A stretch of 64,000 nucleotides of DNA. Source: an uncultured Thiotrichaceae bacterium. Its GTDB lineage: Bacteria > Pseudomonadota > Gammaproteobacteria > SZUA-229. Positions 2,438 to 60,744 of this stretch are shown in pieces (position 1 is the first letter of the stretch; every line of letters starts with the position of its first letter). The DNA lies in assembly GCA_964600755.1 (NCBI GenBank), contig CAZRKQ010000050.1, forward strand, positions 4,926-68,925, given 5' to 3'. The notes beneath the pieces are model-generated. The model was not told where the DNA came from and did not search any database. It worked only from the letters and a program-made list of their open reading frames with translations. A program made the translations under genes and the position numbers.

Positions 2438-4180
2438 TTATGCCCAGTTCGTCTGTTTCGCCTTGTGCAGTTTCCTGTAGCCTTCAAGTAACTTGTTATG
2501 CAGCTCAAAACCTTCCAGGCTCAATCCCGGACTGTGCAGGCCATGAAATACTTCCCTGCCCTCGGCTATTTCAATACCGTTAATGACACTGTCTTCGCCA
2601 TACATCAGTACCAGGCTATTACTGTAATCTTCGAATTTACGATTTTCGTCGTGCTTTATGTCCAGTAGCGCATTGATACAGCGATATTGGTTTGATCGCT
2701 TCTCGCCAAGCTGATCGATTTGCACACACCAGTCGACCCAATCGATGGCCTGTTCATCCTGCATGGCCAGACACAGCATTGCTTTAAGCTCACCTATTCT
2801 CAGGGTCGCCCAGGCGGTACCAGGGTCTGGTGCTATGCCTATAAACTCGGCAACGCGTTGAAAATCATTGTAGCCTGCTGCTTCGAGCCGGTTGAAGATA
2901 TCGCGCCAGCGTTCACTATCAAGCTCTTTCACAGACAGAACATCTTTTCTGAATAAAGCACCTTCATTGTTGTTATTCCAGACCAGGTCATCGACGGGGT
3001 AAATATCTGACATACCCGGTACGATGATGCGGCACGAATACACATCCAGGTGCTGGTAGTCTGAGATATAAATATCGAAACCCATGTCATGAATGACACC
3101 GCATAAATACTCAAATTCATCATGCGTGTTGGCATCATGTTCCCAGTCGGCAAATTCATAGTCCGCTGAGTGTTTGAAAAAGTCGTATGAAATCAGTCCG
3201 CTGGAGTCGATAAAATGCGATTCCAGGTTATGGTGGTCTGCTACCTCTTCGAGGTCGAAGCTTGGTTGCTGAAAGCCATCCAGCTGGTCCAGGCCCCTGC
3301 CCTGCAGCAGCTCGGTGACGGTGCGCTCAAGCGCAACTTCAAAACACGGGTGGGCACCGAATGATGCGAACACGGAGCCATTATTTGGGTTAATCAGCGT
3401 AACGCTCATAACCGGGAATTTGCCTCCTAAAGAAGCATCGGCAATACGCAGATGGTAACCATGCTGCTGTAATTCACTGATTGAAGCAGCGATACCTGGA
3501 AACCGGTTGATGACCTCGAGCGGCACTTCTGGCAGACAGATTCCATCTGCGATGATTCTGTTCTTTACATAGCGCTCAAAAACCTCGGACAATGCCTGCA
3601 CGCGGGCCTCGTTGGCAGTATTACCGGCGGACATACCGTTGCTGACGTAGATGTTGCCAATAACATTCACCGGGAACCAGGTTGTGTGTCCGTCTTTTTG
3701 CCGCTGGTAAGGCACCGCACATATACCACGCTGACCTGTGCCCGAGTTGGTATCGAATATTTGACCAGGTTTCAGCTGCCTGTCAGGGTCATAGTAGTTC
3801 CACAGGCCGTCATCAAGCAGACCGGCAGGCATCGTCTCAGCATCAGTCTGGAACCAGCGTTCGTCCGGGTAATGTACGAAGTCATCATTGGAAAATTCTT
3901 CACCGAGGTAGAAATCTGCGAAAAAATAATTGCAGCTCAGGCGTTCAAAATATTCACCCAGTGCACTGGCAAGACAGGCCTTGTGGCTGGCGCCCTTGCC
4001 ATTTGTAAACATCAGGCCACACTCCTTGTCCCTGATATGAACCGAGTAGACATTCGGCACAGGATTCAACCATGAAGCTTCTTCAATCTCGATACCAAGC
4101 GCTTTCAGTTTGTTCAACATGCTCTCGATGGATGATTCGAGATCACGGTCCTTGCCCTTTATGAATGTGATTTCAGACAT
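2438..4180 (-). CDS. ycaO: YcaO-domain protein (ribosomal protein S12 methylthiotransferase accessory factor-type)
   Basis: 580 aa. Collinear with E. coli YcaO (IEEASWLNPVPNV.SVHIRDKEC...GKGA...ALASALGEYFERLS.NYFFADF ... ACRIIVPGMSDIYP...). Confidence 0.9.
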   Translation of the reverse strand: MSEITFIKGKDRDLESSIESMLNKLKALGIEIEEASWLNPVPNVYSVHIRDKECGLMFTNGKGASHKACLASALGEYFERLSCNYFFADFYLGEEFSNDDFVHYPDERWFQTDAETMPAGLLDDGLWNYYDPDRQLKPGQIFDTNSGTGQRGICAVPYQRQKDGHTTWFPVNVIGNIYVSNGMSAGNTANEARVQALSEVFERYVKNRIIADGICLPEVPLEVINRFPGIAASISELQQHGYHLRIADASLGGKFPVMSVTLINPNNGSVFASFGAHPCFEVALERTVTELLQGRGLDQLDGFQQPSFDLEEVADHHNLESHFIDSSGLISYDFFKHSADYEFADWEHDANTHDEFEYLCGVIHDMGFDIYISDYQHLDVYSCRIIVPGMSDIYPVDDLVWNNNNEGALFRKDVLSVKELDSERWRDIFNRLEAAGYNDFQRVAEFIGIAPDPGTAWATLRIGELKAMLCLAMQDEQAIDWVDWCVQIDQLGEKRSNQYRCINALLDIKHDENRKFEDYSNSLVLMYGEDSVINGIEIAEGREVFHGLHSPGLSLEGFELHNKLLEGYRKLHKAKQTNWA

Positions 4181-4342: not shown

Positions 4343-5248
4343 ATGCCAAACAAAAATATAATATTTATACCCGGCAAGAACCCGAAACCACCCCCGAAAC
4401 AACACCGTGAAATGTTGTGGCGCTCCCTGGCGGAAGGTGTGAGGCGTGCACAGCCGGATATCGCTGCAGATATCGACAAGCGTATGAAGCAGTTCAGGCT
4501 GATCGCCTGGAATCAGCTTTATTACGAGGCTGAAAAAGACAGTAATCGCGACCTGCCCTGGATCGATGAGCTGATAAATACACATGGCCCAACTCAACAC
4601 GATATCAAGGATGCGCATTCATGGCATCGAAAACTGGACCGCACGCTGTATGCTATGGCCGACCATTTTCCCTATATCATCCGTTTTCTTTCCGGCCCCG
4701 CCTGTGCAACAGTTAACGAGCTCAGTCGTTATTTTAAAAACAGCCACAATATCGCCTATCACATTCGTGAACAATTCAAGAAAGTAATCCGTCCCATGCT
4801 CGACAATAACGAGCATGTGCTTGTTATTGGCCATAGCATGGGTTCTATTATTGCTTACGACGCACTGTGGGAGCTGTCTCACATCGAACATCGAAAAGAC
4901 AAGCTTGATTTTCTCTCTATTGGCAGTCCTTTAGGAATGAACTTTGTTCAGCACAGACTGGTTGGAAATAACGAGCAAGGTACACGCAAGTACCCGACCA
5001 TAATCAGGCGCTGGATAAATGTGGCCTCGGTCGGTGATATTACCGCGCTCGACCGGCATTTCCGCGATGATTTCCAGCCCATGCTGGACCTTGACATCAT
5101 TGAATCGATCGAAGACCATACTGAAGGTATATACAACTTCTTCCATAATGAAGATGGCCTGAATTGTCATCGCTCATATGGCTACCTGGTGAATCCGGCG
5201 ACAGGCAAAATCATCGCAGACTGGCTGTATAACTCAGGCGCTGATTAG
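4343..5248 (+). CDS. alpha/beta-hydrolase-fold protein (lipase/esterase-like, GHSMGS nucleophile elbow)
   Basis: 301-aa ORF with a GxSxG motif (VIGHSMGSIIAYDA) and downstream Asp/His candidates. No closer family assignment is possible from sequence alone. Confidence 0.5.
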   Translation: MPNKNIIFIPGKNPKPPPKQHREMLWRSLAEGVRRAQPDIAADIDKRMKQFRLIAWNQLYYEAEKDSNRDLPWIDELINTHGPTQHDIKDAHSWHRKLDRTLYAMADHFPYIIRFLSGPACATVNELSRYFKNSHNIAYHIREQFKKVIRPMLDNNEHVLVIGHSMGSIIAYDALWELSHIEHRKDKLDFLSIGSPLGMNFVQHRLVGNNEQGTRKYPTIIRRWINVASVGDITALDRHFRDDFQPMLDLDIIESIEDHTEGIYNFFHNEDGLNCHRSYGYLVNPATGKIIADWLYNSGAD

Positions 5249-6457
5249 GCTCAAAAGCTCCAAAACCACAAAGCCGGCACTGACAAGAAATCCAAGCAAG
5301 GGGACATACAGCGGAAATATAATCAAACCTTCCGGTTTCGGTTGTTTGCGCTTTACCTGCAATAAAGATAGATTCACCAGCGCAAACACGATCAACATGA
5401 TCAGCGATGTCGCTTCTGCCAGTGACGCCAGCGTTCCACTTACTGCAAGCAGCAGAATTGCAACTGTAGACAATGCGGTTGCAACCAGGGGGGTCTGCGT
5501 GCGCTTGTCTACAAAGCTGATTATGGCTGGAAGCAGCTTGCGGCAACTCATGCCATAAAGCACCCGTGATGCCATGATCATTTGTATCAGGGCCCCATTG
5601 ATCAGTGCAAAAAGACCAATAATACTGATGATGACGGCATCATCGCCGGTTGAATGCTCATACAAACGCGCCAGAGGCACCTGGGTCTGGGCCAGTTGTT
5701 CGGGAGGCATAACCATTACCGCCGTTACCATGATCGCCATGTAGAGCAATGTTGTTATACCCAGGGTAAGCAGGATGCCAATGGGAAGATTGCGTCGTAC
5801 CTGCCGGGTTTCCTCGGCGACTTCCACCATGTCCTCGAAACCAATAAAGGCATAAAAAGCGAGCAATGAACCCGCGTAAATACCATACCAGCTTGCACTA
5901 TCCGCGGCGGGCACCAGCTCCTGCCATCTGTCAGGTAATTCAGTCAGTCCGCTATAACTGACGGCAATAATCAGCAGCAGGCCTGCGATTTCTATCAATG
6001 TTACAAATGCGGCAATCGTGACAGATTCCGCTATTCCCCAGGCAGCAATTGCGCCGATTACCAGACTGACGATAATGATTGCTGTGACTCGATCAAGCTC
6101 AATGAATTCACCAAGATAGGCTGTAAAGCCATTGATTATCGCCGCTGAAGATACCAGGCCAGCTGCAATCACCAGCAGGCCAACAATGGTTGACAAACGT
6201 TCAGAGGAAAAGCCTTCCTTGACATACAGCGCTGCCCCAGCACAACGTGGATATCGTCCGGAGAGCTCGGCAAAAGACAATGCTGTCAGTGCGGCCATGA
6301 TTGACGCAACCAGGAACGAGACTGGAGCGTAGTAACCGGATATACCGGCCATTTCACCAACGAGAGCGTATATACCGGCACCGATAGTTGTACCCAGGCC
6401 GTAAAGTACAAGCTGAGGCAGACCCAGTGTACGTCTAAGTGCTATCGGATCAGGCAA
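5234..6457 (-). CDS. APC-family amino acid permease
   Basis: 407 aa and highly hydrophobic with about 12 TM segments. N-terminal LVLYGLGTTIGAGIYALVGE is typical of the amino acid/polyamine/organocation superfamily. Confidence 0.7.
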   Translation of the reverse strand: MPDPIALRRTLGLPQLVLYGLGTTIGAGIYALVGEMAGISGYYAPVSFLVASIMAALTALSFAELSGRYPRCAGAALYVKEGFSSERLSTIVGLLVIAAGLVSSAAIINGFTAYLGEFIELDRVTAIIIVSLVIGAIAAWGIAESVTIAAFVTLIEIAGLLLIIAVSYSGLTELPDRWQELVPAADSASWYGIYAGSLLAFYAFIGFEDMVEVAEETRQVRRNLPIGILLTLGITTLLYMAIMVTAVMVMPPEQLAQTQVPLARLYEHSTGDDAVIISIIGLFALINGALIQMIMASRVLYGMSCRKLLPAIISFVDKRTQTPLVATALSTVAILLLAVSGTLASLAEATSLIMLIVFALVNLSLLQVKRKQPKPEGLIIFPLYVPLLGFLVSAGFVVLELLSLISA

Positions 6458-11846: not shown

Positions 11847-12269
11847 TTACTTGGCAGCCATATCCTTCAGCGCTTTCAGAGGCAGCACTTTAACAACCTT
11901 GCGTGCCGGCTTCGCAGATACGTCCATGGTTTCACCTGGACGGAACGGATTTGGAACATTCTTGCGTGCCTTGGTTGCCGGCTTCTTGTTAACTTTAACC
12001 TTGAGCAAACCTGGCAGCTTGAACTCGCCTGCACCACGACTCTTGATGTGGCCTTCGATTACATCTGAAAGTGAATCGAAAACTTGCGCAACATCTTTTC
12101 TTGCAAGTCCGGTATATTCAGAGATGTGAGCATACAGTTGAGATTTTGTGTAGCCCGCGCTGATTGCCTTGACTGATTTTGCTGGAGCTGCTTTTTTTGC
12201 TACGCGTTTTTTAGCAACTTTCTTCTTGGCAACTTTCTTTTTAGCAACTTTTTTCTTTACTGGTGACAT
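11847..12269 (-). CDS. HU/IHF-family DNA-binding protein with N-terminal lysine-rich (KKVAK)n histone-H1-like extension
   Basis: 140 aa. N-terminus is [31 protein letters not shown]. The C-terminal ~95 aa has the HU-fold pattern (YTKSQLYAHISEY..L..KDVAQVFDSLSDVI...GEFKLPGLLKVKV...NPF.PGE). Confidence 0.8.
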   Translation of the reverse strand: MSPVKKKVAKKKVAKKKVAKKRVAKKAAPAKSVKAISAGYTKSQLYAHISEYTGLARKDVAQVFDSLSDVIEGHIKSRGAGEFKLPGLLKVKVNKKPATKARKNVPNPFRPGETMDVSAKPARKVVKVLPLKALKDMAAK

Positions 12270-12412
12270 TGTTTTTAGACCCTTTGGTGTTTGGTGGAAA
12301 TTCTGTGGGCAATTTTTATACCTTTATCTCAAGAATGTAAATACATTTTTTGAAAAAAAAGCGTTTTTTCCCGAAAAAAACAGTAAAAATTGATATTAGT
12401 AACGAAATTTTA

Positions 12413-25500: not shown

Positions 25501-25876
25501 TGAACCACAAAGGTCACAGGGGTTCACAGAGAATGTTTTCTGTTGTCCTGCAGCAGCAAGGCTTCACAAATGAAATAAACTGTAGTGGTCTGTAATTGAT
25601 CTTACAAACAGCGTCAGATTTACTCATGTCATATTTTTCATCTGAATAGCTGTATTTGCACATTCGAAGATAATCATAAAGCTTAATTATCCACAGATGA
25701 ACGCAGATAAACACAGATAAAGTTGTTTTTAAGCTTTTATACATCTGTGTTTATCTGCGTTCATCTGTGGACTTTTTTAAAGACCACCTAGTTTAAATCA
25801 GACAATTACTGTCAGATCAAGTCACGACCAGCACAAATAAACTCTGTGTCACTCTGTGACCTCTGTGGTTCAAATC
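25501..25876. mobile_element. MITE-like non-coding element with ~30-bp imperfect terminal inverted repeats and a central perfect 28-bp palindrome
   Basis: Left end TGAACCACAAAGGTCACAGGGGTTCACAGAG (25501-) and right end CTCTGTGTCACTCTGTGACCTCTGTGGTTCA (-25876) are inverted copies. Internally, CCACAGATGAACGCAGATAAACACAGAT (25691-25718) pairs perfectly with ATCTGTGTTTATCTGCGTTCATCTGTGG (25743-25770). TTATCCACA (25687-25695) matches the DnaA-box consensus. Confidence 0.5.
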
Positions 25877-38553: not shown

Positions 38554-39720
38554 ATGGGGCTGCAGGTACTGATTGGATCCCGTGGTGAGCATTCACTCAC
38601 GACCGAAGTCAACCAGGGACTGCACATCGATCTGGATGACCATGATTCAGCCCTTGCCAGCATACTCGAAGAAGCCCGGCTAAGACCCTTTAGCGGCATC
38701 ATCGGCAGTGATGACAGTACTGTCGAGCTGGCCGCGCATGCAGCCAACAGGCTCGGCCTGCCCCATAATCCGCCTGAAGCTGCGCGCTCTACACGCAGAA
38801 AAGACCGCGCCCGGGCACAACTAATGCTGGCGGGCTGCCCTGTGCCAATCCACTGCCTGGTCGATATCAGCAAACCACTTGATAAGCAGATGTCCGGCCT
38901 ACCCTGGCCATGCGTTCTCAAACCAGTCAACATGTCAGCGAGTCGTGGTGTTATACGGGCAAATAATGAACATGAGTTTATTGATGCCTGCGAACGCCTG
39001 CGAAACATCATTTCCGAATCGATCGACGAATTTGAACGCTGCCATGTTCTTGTCGAAGACTACATAGACGGTATCGAAGTCGCCTATGAAGGCTACCTCC
39101 ACGCAGGCCAGTTGCACACACTCGCGGTGTTCGATAAACCGGATCCACTGACCGGTCCTTTCTTCGAAGAAACCATTTATGTCACTCCATCACAGCTCGA
39201 AGCCGACACCCTCAGGATTATCAAGCAGCGGGTACAGCAGGCATGCACAGCTTTTGGACTGACAACCGGTCCAATCCATGCCGAATTACGTGTCAACGCC
39301 AGGGATGCATGGATACTGGAAGTTGCATCACGTACGATTGGCGGCGAATGCGCACGCACACTGGATAGCGGCACAAATAAAAGCCTTGAACAATTGACCG
39401 TGTCACTCGCAATTGGTGAGCCAGTGCAACCGGCAGGCATAACTCAAAGCCGCGGTGTAATGATGATTCCGATCAGGCAGGCGGGACTACTCAGGCGTGT
39501 AGAAGGCATCCTGGCAGCCCAGAAAGTACCTCATATCGAAACAATTGATATTGTAATCAGTGAGGGTCATGAGCTGATACCTCTACCGGAAGGCAATCAG
39601 TACCTCGGGTTTATCTTTGCGAAAGCCGATTCGCCAGATATGGTGACCGCCGCACTTAGAATGGCACATGAAAAGCTGAATTTTGTCACCGCGCCCGTGT
39701 TCAAGTTGGCTTCGGTCTGA
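38554..39720 (+). CDS. ATP-grasp domain enzyme (carboxylate-amine ligase-like); N-terminus probably extends upstream to ~38470 using a non-ATG start, or the gene is disrupted
   Basis: 388 aa from the first ATG. The ATP-grasp core is HVLVEDYIDGIEVAYEG...IHAELRV. The same frame is open back to 38425 and encodes ...ISKRLLLISQPNSYRIAPYLTAAKQ-MGLQVLIG. This looks like the canonical N-terminal Rossmann-like pre-ATP-grasp strand, but it contains no ATG/GTG/TTG. Confidence 0.65.
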   Translation: MGLQVLIGSRGEHSLTTEVNQGLHIDLDDHDSALASILEEARLRPFSGIIGSDDSTVELAAHAANRLGLPHNPPEAARSTRRKDRARAQLMLAGCPVPIHCLVDISKPLDKQMSGLPWPCVLKPVNMSASRGVIRANNEHEFIDACERLRNIISESIDEFERCHVLVEDYIDGIEVAYEGYLHAGQLHTLAVFDKPDPLTGPFFEETIYVTPSQLEADTLRIIKQRVQQACTAFGLTTGPIHAELRVNARDAWILEVASRTIGGECARTLDSGTNKSLEQLTVSLAIGEPVQPAGITQSRGVMMIPIRQAGLLRRVEGILAAQKVPHIETIDIVISEGHELIPLPEGNQYLGFIFAKADSPDMVTAALRMAHEKLNFVTAPVFKLASV

Positions 39721-39885
39721 TTAGTATTGGAATTAACGCAAAGAGAATATTCAGTTTTTGTAGGAGCGGCATTAGCCGCGAACATCATCTGATCGTTCCT
39801 AACTGAGCATTTGATTTCGCCTTGCTGGCGAGTTACTTTTCTTTGCTTGTCCAAAGAAAAGTAACCAAAAGAAAAGACACGGTAC

Positions 39886-41187
39886 GAGTCAAGGACATAG
39901 GTAACAAAAGAGTCCAAGGACATGGGTTACACTTTCACCGTGATATAGGGCACGGTCTTACCCTTAATACTTCTTTCATCAAATCGTCCGAGTGTGACCG
40001 GTCCAAAATATACCTGCCAGATCCCCGCATCGACTTCTTCCAGTCCAACATGTTCACCTTTCAACAGGTGTGACACATAGACCAGCTTGTTATGCCAGTA
40101 CACCACGCCATTGCTGCTGACTTTGCGCACCTCAAAATAATTCGGATAGTGCAGCTCGGGTAGATGTTCCGGGTAAGGTCGGGGTGACGGTGCGTAGTGT
40201 GAGGCGGGCGTCTGCTGCTCAAGCGCCTCATGCGGACGCTGTTCATTGTACTCTGCACGAAAGGCATCGAAGCGTTGTTGCTGGGCTTTCATGTTCGCCG
40301 ACGGTGGCCGGGTCGCCGCTTGCTTAAGCGTGCGGTGCATGCGCTCATGCCGTCCATTCTGTTGCGGCTTGCCCGGCTCAATGCGCTCGGGCAGGATCCC
40401 CAGCCTGATCCACCACAGTGACAGTTGCGACAGGCCACCGCGGGCCGTGCTGGCAAAGGGTACGCCGTTGTCAGAACGGATGCGCTCAGGCAAGCCGTAT
40501 TGTCGGAACAGTCGGGTGAAGGTGGCCCGGGTGTCTTTCAGCCGCGGCCCTTTGAGGGCGTCGCAACCACACAGGTAGCGACTTTGATGGTCCATGACCG
40601 TGAGTGGATAACACCACTGGCCGTTACCCAGTTTGAACTGCCCTTTGTAGTCGACACTCCACACCCCATTGACCTGCTTCACCGGGGCAAACGGTTGTGG
40701 ATACGGCGTCACCCGGCGCCGGCGCCGGCGCGGGTGCACCAGGCCCGCACGGGACAGAATGTTGTAAATCGTGCTCTTTGAGGGAATGGCTTCATCGGGA
40801 TAACGCTGTGCCAGCAGCACCTGCAGCTTCTTGGCACCGGGCTGTGTCTGAAACTGCTGGCGCAGTTCGATGATGGCTTGCTGAATGCGGTAAGGGGTTC
40901 GCGTTGGACACGCGGTGGGTGTACGGCGTTGTTCATTCAGCCCGTCCAGCCCTTGTTGCTGAAAACGGTGTATCCACTTGTAACCCGTTTTTCGGCTGAC
41001 GCCATAGTGTGCACACAGCTCGGTCACGCTCGCTACCTGGCGCAGGTAGTCGGCAATAAACAGGACTTTTTGTTGCATCGGCTTCACCTCTTTCCAGGGC
41101 ATAGGCACCTCCTCTTGTCGGTGCCAACAGATTACTCAATCTGTTACCTATGTCCTTGGACTAATGTGTTACCTATGTTTATAAACC
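39886..41187 (-). mobile_element. IS481-family insertion sequence (about 1.3 kb) with duplicated terminal inverted repeats, GC-rich relative to its surroundings
   Basis: Terminal IRs: GTCAAGGACATAGGTAACA / GTCCAAGGACATGGGTTACA at 39888-39931, and TGTTACCTATGTCCTTGGAC / TGTTACCTATGTTT at 41143-41182. A single DDE transposase ORF lies inside. The coding DNA is visibly more GC-rich than flanking genes. Confidence 0.8.
39927..41108 (-). CDS. IS481-family DDE transposase (N-terminal HTH + integrase catalytic core)
   Basis: 393 aa. HTH (ELCAHYGVSRKTGYKWIHRF), DDE integrase core (WSVDYKG...VMDHQSRY..., SDNGVPF, ...QNGRHER), and a poly-Arg PRRRRRR linker. Confidence 0.85.
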   Translation of the reverse strand: MPMPWKEVKPMQQKVLFIADYLRQVASVTELCAHYGVSRKTGYKWIHRFQQQGLDGLNEQRRTPTACPTRTPYRIQQAIIELRQQFQTQPGAKKLQVLLAQRYPDEAIPSKSTIYNILSRAGLVHPRRRRRRVTPYPQPFAPVKQVNGVWSVDYKGQFKLGNGQWCYPLTVMDHQSRYLCGCDALKGPRLKDTRATFTRLFRQYGLPERIRSDNGVPFASTARGGLSQLSLWWIRLGILPERIEPGKPQQNGRHERMHRTLKQAATRPPSANMKAQQQRFDAFRAEYNEQRPHEALEQQTPASHYAPSPRPYPEHLPELHYPNYFEVRKVSSNGVVYWHNKLVYVSHLLKGEHVGLEEVDAGIWQVYFGPVTLGRFDERSIKGKTVPYITVKV

Positions 41188-41412
41188 GTACCGGGCGCAT
41201 TTTTTGGGTTACGTTTTTTGGGCGTTCAAAAAAGGTAACTCGCTCCAGCAGGAGCGAAACTAATGCTTAGTTACACGTGATAATAAATCGATAGATATTA
41301 TAATCAGTATCACAGCGTAATTTTCACGGTTAAAAGTGAGATTAAGTTAAGTTCGCGACTAATGCCACTCCTACAAAAGCTGTCCACGGCAGCCCCAACG
41401 TCTAAAAGATTA

Positions 41413-41471: not shown

Positions 41472-41759
41472 TTATTTCTTGCCGCCGCCGGCCTGGAAAC
41501 CTGCCGGCGCCTGGCCATAGTCCCCTTCGCCAAAGAAAAAGCCAGCCATGTGTTTTTCGATGAGCTCGATATTTTTCGGATCAGCCGTATTCAGGCCGTT
41601 TTCATTAATAATGGTTGTCAGGCGTTCTAGCCATTGTTGCCAGCCTTCCTTTGATACATTTTCGTAGATGCGGATACCTAAAGAACCCGGATGAGGCGGT
41701 TGCTCCAGCCCCTCGGCTTCTGTTTTGAGCACCACGCATTGAACCATTCTCGTCATCAC
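41472..41759 (-). CDS. yggX: Fe(II)-trafficking / oxidative-damage protection protein YggX
   Basis: 95 aa. Collinear with E. coli YggX (VQCVVLKTEAEGLE..PHPGSLGIRIYENVSKEGWQQW...LINE..LN). Confidence 0.8.
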   Translation of the reverse strand: MMTRMVQCVVLKTEAEGLEQPPHPGSLGIRIYENVSKEGWQQWLERLTTIINENGLNTADPKNIELIEKHMAGFFFGEGDYGQAPAGFQAGGGKK

Positions 41760-59654: not shown

Positions 59655-59721
59655 GTTATTACCTCTGTGTCTGTTCGTTGTTTCTAACCATGTTCAAATT
59701 CAGTCAGCCAGCTCAGCTTAA

Positions 59722-60744
59722 TCAAGCTTTTTTCTTGACGGCCTTCTTCTTGGCAACTTTCTTTTTAGCTACCTTCTTCTTGGCGACTTTCTTTTTAGCC
59801 ACTTTATTCTTTGGCGCTGCAGCTGCCTTCTCTGTGACTTCTTCAACAGCTTCCTCGGCAACTTCTTCAACTACAACTTCTGCTGGAGCTTCAGCTTCTA
59901 CTTTTTCAGCCGCTTCTTTTACTGCTTCTACTTTTTTTGCAACAGGTGCTTTTTCCTCGGCTGCTTGTACGTGAGCCTTGGCTGTTTTCTTCACAGGCGC
60001 CTTCTTTACTGACACCTTTTTCTTTGGTGCTGTTTCTTCGACTTCTTCAGGCTGAATTACAGCAGAAGCACGTCCTTCAATGACAGCGTCGGCGATTCCC
60101 TGTGAATATAGTCGAATCGCCTTGATAGCATCATCATTACCGGGAACAATGTAATCAATGCCATCGGGTGAATTATTTGTGTCAACAATGCCGAATACTG
60201 GAATGCCGAGCTTGTTAGCTTCATTTATGGCAATCTCTTCATGGCCAACATCTATTACAAATAATGCATCTGGCAGACCTTTCATGTTCTTGATACCGCC
60301 AAGCACCTTCTCAAGCTTTTCCATTTCACGTTTCAAACCAAGCGCTTCTTTCTTGGTAAGCCTGGCAAAGCCCTCACCGGTAGACATTTCCTCTAGATCC
60401 ATCAACCTTTGTATAGACTGGCGAATAGTTTTGTAATTGGTCAGCATGCCGCCGAGCCAGCGATGGTTTACATATGGCATTCCACAACGCTGTGCTTCTT
60501 CCATCACCGTGTTGCGTGCTGCGCGTTTTGTGCCAACAAATAAAACAGTGCCTCGATTAGAAGCAATCTTGCCAATGGCATTTACAGCGTCGTTGTAAAG
60601 TGGCAGGGTTTTTTCAAGGTTGACGATGTGGATCTTGTTGCGGGCACCAAAAATGAATTCTGACATTTTTGGGTTCCAGAAACGGGTCTGGTGACCAAAA
60701 TGAACGCCGGCTTCGAGCATCAGGCGCATAGATACGTTAGACAT
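59722..60744 (-). CDS. rpsB: 30S ribosomal protein S2 with ~100-aa C-terminal extension (acidic E/A/V-rich region followed by a (KKVAK)n lysine-rich tail)
   Basis: 340 aa, versus about 240 aa for a typical S2. S2 core: [19 protein letters not shown]....VFVGTKRAA. The extension is ...[16 protein letters not shown]...[52 protein letters not shown]. Confidence 0.95.

Follow-up and report, generated by a model that had tools for sequence, protein, structure and literature searches.

An IS481-family insertion sequence probably lodged at a junction within a TwoAYGGAY-type repeat, and a putative triple-helix domain in the arms of that repeat

Introduction

The IS481 family of insertion sequences (ISs) is known from IS481 and IS1002 of Bordetella and relatives, and IS481 itself takes a short target of the NCTAGN type. 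Homing of a different kind, to repetitive extragenic palindromic (REP) sequences and bacterial interspersed mosaic elements, is recorded for IS1397 and ISKpn1 of the IS3 family, for IS621, ISPpu9, ISPpu10 and ISPa11 of the IS110 family and for others; the families listed are IS3, IS110, IS4, IS256 and IS5, and IS481 is not among them (Tobes and Pareja 2006, PMC1525189). Here we describe an IS481-family element in a stretch of 64 kb from an uncultured Thiotrichaceae bacterium (contig CAZRKQ010000050.1; 'the window' below always means this whole stretch), which behaves like the REP-homing ISs of those other families. The element stands between two mirrored, hairpin-bearing arms, and these in turn between two short inverted repeats. 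We consider it likely that it lodged at the junction between arm and core of a repeat of the TwoAYGGAY type, and that the copy in the window is a derivative from which the cores have since been lost.

Three further bodies of work bear on the locus. The TwoAYGGAY motif (RF01731) was described as an RNA of unknown function (Weinberg et al. 2010, PMC2864571). REP sequences and their paired form, REPINs, are mobilised by REP-associated tyrosine transposases, the RAYTs (PMC3116915, PMC2817692). RNA triple helices in the major groove have been established for the pseudoknots of telomerase RNA, SAM-II and preQ1-II and for triplexes of the ENE (element for nuclear expression) or MALAT1 type, and the prokaryotic cases covered by a 2026 triple-helix review are riboswitches and group II introns only (reviews PMC7583470, PMC13541005).

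The insertion sequence and its limits

The spacer between the convergent genes for an ATP-grasp ligase (38554-39720, plus strand) and yggX (41472-41759, minus strand) measures 1751 bp, and its sole long open reading frame (ORF) lies on the minus strand. The longest reading of this frame is 39927-41108; database entries start at the ATG at 41102, from which the protein is identical to the database entry P0001 (391 aa), and an exact look-up of the 393-aa reading with its GTG start gave no database match. The product carries the Pfam domains rve, rve_3, HTH_32 and LZ_Tnp_IS481, all over their cut-offs, and relatives with 75-78% identity bear the name IS481 family transposase. Its best NCBIfam match is the IS481 equivalog NF033577, with 218.2 bits over profile positions 2-283 of 284, the next being IS3 with 123 bits. 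The cut-off of that equivalog is 224 bits, and the element seems best filed as an IS481-family IS with the shortfall of 6 bits noted, which agrees with the assignment made in the preliminary description of the locus.

P0001 is encoded on at least 17 public contigs, of which ten were retrieved (L001-L010). Against the window copy, BLAST gave 100% identity over 1310-1313 nt in nine of them (L002-L010) and 99.9% in L001. When the ten contigs are aligned on the gene, identity ends at GGTACGG upstream and at CGTACC downstream, and the sequences diverge immediately beyond. Because the copies part company right outside these termini, the IS can be set at 39881-41192, or 1312 bp, and the hairpins and the outer repeat fall outside it. 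The corresponding termini in relatives read TGTACGG...CCGTACA. Two copies of a subterminal repeat, CAAGGACATAGGTAACA, lie within each end, and these duplicated repeats, already recognised in the preliminary description, are located at 39890-39931 and 41138-41178. In its make-up the IS is an ordinary transposon of the DDE/rve kind: it has one ORF and terminal inverted repeats, and its subterminal repeats are doubled and resemble binding sites.

The IS is richer in GC than the rest of the window (56.2% vs 46.8%), and the GC content at third codon positions is 0.65 in the transposase gene vs 0.53-0.60 in neighbouring genes. Recent acquisition had been suggested on the strength of this excess. The excess is real, but what speaks for recent activity is the presence of copies 100% identical to one another in arms only 74-92% alike, and not composition alone.

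One allele of the same locus departs from the standard form. In L017 (2532-2685, from sample ERZ27295567; the locus is that of window 41100-41200) the left IS end contributes its first 51 nt, which are fused to an inverted interior that runs, reversed, from nucleotide 27 of the right end onward into the 3' end of the transposase gene. The junction falls within the 17-nt repeat CAAGGACATAGGTAACA common to both ends. The interior appears to have flipped by way of the element's own inverted subterminal repeats, or else the join is a rare assembly artefact.

The insertion site

Beyond the termini of the retrieved copies there are only three kinds of flank. Type A, the arm, consists of a GC hairpin, a 14-bp AT-rich hairpin and then CAAAAGAAAAG; type B reads GCACCCCGRCCAGTTTGCCC... 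and type C CACCCGGGCGCTCGTGCTTCGCAT..., and both are cores. The window IS has type A on both sides, inverted; other copies have A/B, A/C, C'/B or B'/B. All 22 readable ends of the identical copies map to one and the same junction of arm and core, either on its arm side (...CAAAAGAAAAG plus 3-7 nt) or on its core side. The IS occurs there in both orientations, 3-9 nt past the conserved hairpin and purine repeat. The arms beside these identical copies are mutually only 74-92% identical; the insertions are therefore independent events in already diverged elements, and the copies were not amplified together with one of them.

The association extends well beyond the identical copies. A metagenome scan brought up transposase relatives at 57-88% identity, and of their 16 left ends 13 abut an arm with a covaried hairpin and purine repeat. 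Two of these loci (L134, L137) have the order arm-IS-core, and L135, a 66% relative from another sample and another assembler, has arm-IS-arm'. These relatives show that arm and IS have an old association, kept across transposases diverged to 57% identity.

Direct repeats are found at contigs of the arm-IS-core kind, namely CAC (L007), GCC (L137), CGC (L147), AGTC (L136) and TTGGC (L143); the contigs are metagenomic and their flanks possibly chimeric. When the IS and one CAC are taken out of L007, the intact consensus AAAAGGCACCCCG is restored. Together these observations indicate that insertion is site-specific, at the junction of arm and core. We infer that the transposase selects this junction by recognising DNA of the arm, through either its sequence or its structure. 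All that the arms share with the subterminal repeats of the IS is the pentamer GTAAC, so mimicry of the IS ends by the arm is weak, and the sensing of structure is speculation. The idea that the arms are miniature inverted-repeat transposable elements (MITEs) of this IS was considered and rejected, as both their outer ends (TTATCACGTGTAAC...) and their inner ends are unlike GGTACGGTTTATAAACATAGGTAAC.

Other positions and targets were met in passing. At the edge of a Dyella koreensis contig (NZ_JADIKD010000008.1, the last ~130 nt of L128) lies the left end of a different element of the IS481 clade, TGTATGGACCGGAGACATAGGTAACAG..., placed within the loop of the 14-bp hairpin, which amounts to a second insertion position in another host. 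In soil and sediment, IS481 relatives with 53-57% identity (L150-L210) have GTTAG some 8-12 nt before their left ends. This GTTAG closes a hairpin of ~50 nt, CTAACG...GTTAG, which belongs to a different structured repeat and is apparently another homing target of the wider clade.

The repeat and its TwoAYGGAY core

Type B proves to be the orphan motif TwoAYGGAY (Rfam RF01731), on the strand opposite to the A-to-B reading direction, and type C gives partial matches to the same model. Next to the arm motif, RF01731 exceeds its gathering threshold of 43 bits in five loci: L001 (58.2 bits), L002 (52), L050 (52), L040 (62 and 49.1) and L032 (45.1). With type B so identified by Rfam and no intron match adjoining the motif, the candidates that B and C are ends of group II introns or of another IS were dropped.

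The arm is far more widespread than the IS. A 25-mer, CAAAGAAAAGTAACCAAAAGAAAAG, which comprises the 3' half of the hairpin and the purine repeat, was scanned through one genome per species and found in at least 111 genome stretches, identical across at least four phyla. The matches listed include the Gammaproteobacteria Dyella, Psychromonas, Cellvibrio, Methylomicrobium, Actinobacillus, Haemophilus and metagenome-assembled genomes (MAGs) labelled Thiotrichales, together with Betaproteobacteria (Silvimonas, Burkholderia), Desulfobacterota, Bacteroidota (Mucilaginibacter, Bacteroidaceae) and Selenomonadaceae; among them Dyella (Dyella koreensis) has at least 20 copies per genome. Related arms occur in MAGs labelled uncultured Gammaproteobacteria or Thiotrichales. 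A tblastn search with the transposase of the 111 genome blocks (8 kb each) that hold the 25-mer found no IS481 gene, the one trace being the IS end at the contig edge in L128, and the motif is therefore independent of the IS. Within the window no further copy of the hairpin or of the outer end of the arm was found, and a blastn search of PLSDB plasmids with the intact repeat element gave no match.

Where the IS is absent, type A runs unbroken into type B, type C or other cores, and arm and core are therefore one unit that the IS has split. Convergent pairs of arms free of the IS lie 220-490 nt apart, with a core present in 11 of 11. One complete element (L050, 3764-4264) reads arm, RF01731 on the minus strand (52 bits), partial RF01731 on the plus strand (44 bits) and arm'; it is ~500 bp long and has the outer ends TTATCACGTGTAAC... 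and ...CTCGTGATAA. The order of the intact repeat is thus shown to be arm, TwoAYGGAY-type core, second inverted core, arm', with arms of ~90 bp in a whole of ~500 bp. By homology of its two arms, the window appears to hold only the 3' arms of such elements, the part that lies outside the Rfam model.

The units are variable in two further respects. Several gammaproteobacterial copies (L001 2830-2905; also L109, L067, L092, L027, L081 and L085) carry an insert of ~75 nt, GTTGCAAATCACATCCCTGTGATTTGCC...GATGAATTTGTC, between GTTAC and the pyrimidine strand of the 14-bp hairpin, and the Selenomonadaceae have a different insert at the same position; this may represent either a variable expansion or yet another tiny mobile element, lodged inside the arm. 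In L118 (4707-6095) two convergent units of arm and core surround an ORF of 263 aa (4968-5759), and the units can therefore bracket cargo.

Why the copy in the window is symmetric

The copy in the window differs from a simple insertion. An arm stands on either side of it and a core is missing, the two arms are different variants with 74% identity, and its junctions (GACAC|IS|GGGCG) show no target-site duplication. In another sample the same locus is found in another state: L016 is identical over 330 nt from yggX through the right-hand arm (A2), which then continues straight into a core, with no IS. Two independent assemblies (L017, L018) confirm the junction of A2 with the IS at this locus. 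Elsewhere, L002 is doubly occupied and reads arm, IS, core B, core C', second IS fragment and outer part of arm'; the second IS is represented by its first 118 nt (a 5' fragment), 96.6% identical to the first and in the same orientation.

These states suggest a route. An intact element has two mirror-image junctions and would offer room for two IS copies. Homologous recombination between two copies in direct orientation would then delete the cores together with one IS; alternatively, the transposase could mediate an adjacent deletion reaching to the second, mirror-image target, with the same product, namely a symmetric arm-IS-arm' without target-site duplication. The double-IS state of L002 would be an intermediate of the deletion route. 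Transposition in the related IS3 family is of the copy-out/paste-in type, and by analogy the DDE transposase here presumably works likewise.

How far can this reading be trusted, and what else could produce the same picture? Several points weigh against it. The window itself has neither a core nor an RF01731 match, its arms being assigned by homology to other contigs; the junction on the side of the left-hand arm (A1) lacks confirmation by a second assembly; and 3 of the 16 relatives have no recognisable arm at the left flank. Many of the supporting contigs are short and metagenomic, and the pairing of flanks across a repeat of 1.3 kb may be chimeric, which weakens the counts of duplications and orientations. 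A short-read assembler could, moreover, turn arm-IS-core-IS-arm' into arm-IS-arm', so that the loss of the cores is perhaps not biological. In that event the true locus would read A2, IS, core or cores, IS, A1', or some other multi-copy order; the assembler would have entered by A2, crossed one IS copy and left by A1', skipping the loop, and the targeting would be unchanged, only the coreless symmetry being an artefact. Such a collapse gains something from the IS being an exact repeat of 1.3 kb on at least 17 contigs, most of which break off within 100-300 nt of it, from the double-IS element in L002 (though its second copy is truncated) and from the joining of A2 to a core at the same locus in L016. 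We nevertheless regard it as unlikely, since the same arm-IS-arm' order appears in L135, from another sample and assembler, and collinearity of the window contig with relatives holds on either side.

The remaining explanations fare worse. The preliminary description had allowed for insertion exactly into the centre of a palindromic MITE- or REP-type element. Its intuition that a host repeat was targeted was sound, but there are three layers and not one, and the target is the arm/core junction and not the centre. A single insertion into a coreless arm-arm' palindrome would fit the symmetric flanks and the similar spacing between motif and IS on the two sides (3-4 nt and 6-7 nt). We think it very improbable, because every intact element has a core of 220-490 nt at the target, the core being present in all 11 IS-free arm pairs with a minimum spacing of 220 nt and missing in the window; simple insertions of this IS clade show apparent duplications of 3-5 bp, yet GACAC and GGGCG do not match; the two arms of the window are different variants; and the same locus exists with A2 joined to a core. 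Slightly more improbable still is the reverse order of events, in which TwoAYGGAY-type units insert next to IS ends, or IS and units spread as a composite. The units are indeed multicopy (at least 20 in Dyella koreensis among the matches listed) and polymorphic between strains, so they move or are copied; but the IS interrupts a unit found unbroken at other places and leaves the arm on one side and the core on the other, removal of the IS and one duplication restores an intact junction, and both orientations of the IS occur. Identical IS copies in arms of 74-92% identity, beside different core types, are also incompatible with co-amplification. Hardly any credence is left for the other proposal of the preliminary description, composite IS ends of ~150 bp, by which hairpins and outer repeats would be parts of a mobile unit of ~1.6 kb. 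Inverted symmetry does reach ~90-130 nt past the IS on both sides, but the ten copies are identical only within 39881-41192, and what flanks them is in some cases an arm and in others a core, of differing sequence. The layers come apart in orthologous and same-locus alleles, and arms without the IS are found at more than 100 places in genomes of at least four phyla, where the blocks of 8 kb contain no IS481 gene. The likely reading is that of an IS lodged at an arm/core junction whose cores were later lost.

The arm as a putative pseudoknot with a triple helix

Read on the TwoAYGGAY strand, the arm has the form 5'-GGG-[UGCC]-UUUUCUUUU-G-GUUAC-UUUUCUUUG-[GGCA]AG-CAAAGAAAAG-UAAC-3', followed by a GC hairpin. 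Its fold was analysed in an alignment of 53 distinct instances. The 14-bp hairpin (S2) is 97.9% paired, with compensatory changes at 10 of 14 pairs. A second helix (S1), between the bracketed UGCC and GGCA segments, covaries at all four pairs; among its 4-bp combinations 12 distinct ones are fully complementary, the mean with shuffled partners being 3 of 28. None of 500 shuffles reached the observed scores, and controls in which the strands were slid were 47-61% paired. Fourteen U.G wobbles, all at one position of S2, are confined to the TwoAYGGAY strand; the opposite strand would have C.A mismatches in their place and shows no G.T. The strand of the fold is thereby fixed.

The U-rich strand on the 5' side matches the purine strand of S2 in parallel register and covaries with the Watson-Crick pyrimidine strand. 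Third-strand column 13 and purine column 46, for example, combine as CG in 37 instances, UA in 12 and UG in four, with none unpaired. For columns 12-16 against 45-49, consistency is 94-100% and every column has 2-12 double changes (2-6 each in columns 12, 14, 15 and 16). Variants that keep only the mirror repeat outnumber those that keep only the direct repeat by 17 to 1, and this retention of mirror symmetry led us to reject a direct repeat or a protein-binding site as the explanation of the purine tracts. The pattern points to an H-type pseudoknot, in which 7-8 U•A-U / C+•G-C triples would be formed by the first loop in the major groove of S2 and the 4-bp helix S1 would join the 5' side to the loop of the hairpin.

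The end of the RF01731 model coincides exactly with S1 and the beginning of the U-strand. In Mucilaginibacter, Desulfobacterales, Methylomicrobium, Actinobacillus and Selenomonadaceae, cores that escape RF01731 are followed by this domain too. In the literature on the motif sequence, on IS481 with REP and on bacterial ENE-like triplexes, and in reviews of RNA triple helices, no description of it was found. On this basis we offer, tentatively and with a little less than even confidence, the proposal that the mirrored hairpins belong to a possibly undescribed RNA domain, near-invariant across phyla, which forms the 3' part of TwoAYGGAY-type and of unclassified repeat RNAs, and to whose boundary, in the form of DNA, an IS481 clade of at least 57% identity homes, possibly by sensing structure.

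Three considerations speak against the triple helix in particular: covariation is the whole of its evidence; the mirror symmetry would fit a purine-motif fold of the complementary strand, or one of single-stranded DNA, just as well; and the GC hairpin (hairpin 1 of Table 1) with its T-run also matches the pattern of an intrinsic terminator on the opposite, inward-reading strand, facing each flanking gene. The terminator-like pattern of hairpin 1 and the T-rich S2 strand is seen in the window at 39816-39845 (plus strand) and 41258-41229 (minus strand), and in L050 at 3790-3819 and 4244-4211. The arms may thus also terminate the ATP-grasp and yggX transcripts.

Layers of the locus

The region is shown to be a stack of nested mobile or repeated elements between two convergent genes (Table 1). 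From the outside inwards the layers are an element with GCAAAG arms, a pair of REP units, the TwoAYGGAY-type arms and the IS.

Table 1. Elements of the spacer between the ATP-grasp ligase gene and yggX, in window coordinates
Feature	Position	Strand	Basis or remark
Remnant of one arm of the outermost element, TTAACGCAAAGAG	39733-39745	.	Orthologous spacers L011, L012, L014 and L211 have both full arms here
Left REP unit, TTT + GTAGGAGCGGCATTAGCCGCGAAC, with GTAG head and 5-bp GC stem; outer repeat of the preliminary description	39757-39783	+	Inverted-pair match
Arm A1 of TwoAYGGAY-type repeat	39791-39880	+	Homologous arms beside other IS copies and IS-free; covariation
A1 hairpin 1	39817-39831
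A1 hairpin S2	39832-39865
A1 purine third-strand repeat, CAAAAGAAAAG	39866-39876
A1 pseudoknot nucleotides GACA	39876-39879
IS481-family insertion sequence, 1312 bp	39881-41192	-	Identity with other copies stops at these termini
Transposase gene, 391 aa, DDE/rve type, N-terminal helix-turn-helix and leucine zipper	39927-41102	-	Identical to P0001
Arm A2, in inverted orientation to A1; identity of the two arms 74%	41193-41283	-	Outer end ...CACGTGATAA
A2 hairpin S2, one G.G mismatch	41208-41239
A2 hairpin 1	41240-41257
Right REP unit, inverted, 2 mismatches to the left unit	41351-41377	-
Full arm of the outermost GCAAAG-arm element, CCTTTGCGTCTCCGCGCCTTTGCGTTAAAA	41421-41450	.	87% complementary to 2204-2233; aligned with arms in L011, L012 and L211

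The preliminary description had drawn attention to the outer inverted pair and to the mirrored hairpins, and both hold up. Its coordinates for the pair were 1-3 nt off: the 27-mer TTTGTAGGAGCGGCATTAGCCGCGAAC and its reverse complement occupy the positions given in the table, no such pair is expected by chance (100 shuffles), and with its flanks the match extends to 43 nt at 81% complementarity (39752-39794 / 41340-41382). As for the hairpins, the stem of the left one is a perfect 14 bp and that of the right one imperfect. The inverted symmetry continues in 81-nt arms of 74% complementarity (39851-39931 / 41142-41222).

The outer 27-mers are extragenic REP units, each having a GTAG head followed by a palindrome that is short, GC-rich and imperfect. 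The unit GTAGGAGCGGC-ATTA-GCCGCGAAC lies at 39760-39783, inverted at 41351-41374 and as a variant at 2249-2272, which makes three in the window; nine further copies were found in related loci. The variant corresponds to the motif that had been reported at 2246-2272, which is real but a looser match, GTAGGATCGGTTTTAACCGCGAAC at 2249-2272; the generalised pattern GTAGGANCGG-N7-CCGCGAAC failed, with no match in the window at up to 3 mismatches and with spacing that differs between copies. In L003, L120, L050, L060 and L121 a REP unit oriented like the arm stands outside it, at a distance of ~46-49 nt or 105-109 nt, and the window has one of each class, the left-hand unit at 48 nt and the right-hand one at about 126 nt. 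Its REP units lie outside the arms and are not the target of the IS. Orthologous spacers of related strains (L011, L012, L014, L211) are 194-211 bp long and hold the outermost element only, with no REP, arms or IS.

Comparable small elements occur elsewhere in the window. A full element of the GCAAAG/GCAGAG type at 2205-2346 has GCAGAGG-rich arms of 28 nt around a REP and a degenerate inverted REP, a second similar small palindromic element lies at 946-1044, and at 25690-25771 the perfect inverted repeat TCCACAGATGAACGCAGATAAACACAGAT, 29 nt long, encloses a spacer of 24 nt. The only Rfam match above gathering score in the window is t44 RNA (RF00127; 60762-60853, minus strand, 79.3 bits). A 15-nt periodicity (GCAACTTTCTTCTTG-like) marks 12178-12273 and 59717-59827, where the opposite strand would encode the Lys/Ala-rich repeats of histone-like proteins. 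In the close relative L211 (3001-4168) the gene for the ATP-grasp ligase is split into two called ORFs (137 aa and 256 aa), which suggests a frameshift or a sequencing error.

Relation to known systems and implications

With the IS481 family the element shares a single DDE transposase of ~390 aa with helix-turn-helix, leucine zipper and rve, a length of ~1.3 kb, terminal repeats that in relatives are of the TG...CA type and, at five metagenomic contigs whose flanks may be chimeric, apparent short target duplications; it differs in the doubling of the subterminal repeats at each end, in its score below the equivalog cut-off, and in a site tied to a structured repeat in place of a short target of the NCTAGN type. 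Like the REP-homing ISs, it has nearly all its copies at one position of a repeated extragenic palindrome, in non-coding, 'safe' DNA and among nested elements, but its target is the junction of two domains in a structured-RNA unit of ~220 nt and not a REP of 20-40 nt. The outer repeat resembles REPs and REPINs in its head, its palindrome, its extragenic position and its arrangement as an inverted pair, whereas its units in the window are 1.57 kb apart and not a few nucleotides. Likeness to TwoAYGGAY RNA lies in the core of the intact repeat; unlike that RNA, the copy in the window is coreless, and the Rfam model stops where the pseudoknot and triple-helix domain begins.

The predicted domain has the hallmarks of the pseudoknot triplexes, with a U-rich strand parallel to a purine strand, covariation of U•A-U with C+•G-C and a short second helix that closes the pseudoknot, and its run of 7-8 consecutive predicted triples is comparable to that of ENE-type elements. 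It departs from the known triplexes in being part of a bacterial, multicopy, intergenic repeat, with no riboswitch pocket and no poly(A) clamp. There is a possible parallel in DNA: work by Rao, Miller and Craig in PNAS in 2000 reportedly found that Tn7 inserts next to triplex DNA. Here, too, a transposon lies at a fixed short distance from a triplex-forming pyrimidine/purine tract, but the Tn7 system consists of an artificial triplex with TnsABC and TnsE or TnsD, and both a DNA triplex in vivo and its sensing by an IS481-family transposase are speculative in the present case.

The nested-palindrome picture itself is fairly ordinary and is explained by known processes, namely an active IS481-family element among host repeats and the homing of ISs to extragenic palindromes, which is already known. 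What appears unusual is the target, the junction between domains of a structured-RNA, gene-like repeat, together with the conserved, predicted triple-helix domain. A caution follows for the reading of MAG contigs, in which symmetric pictures of an 'IS in a palindrome' can be products of recombination or assembly collapses. The locus also offers a tractable system for asking how a DDE transposase reads its target. If the domain holds, the 16-year-old question of what TwoAYGGAY RNA is becomes more testable; if the proposal is true, this orphan RNA would gain a defined architecture, with a protected or structured 3' end, and there would be a natural bacterial link between a triplex-forming sequence and the choice of target by a transposon.

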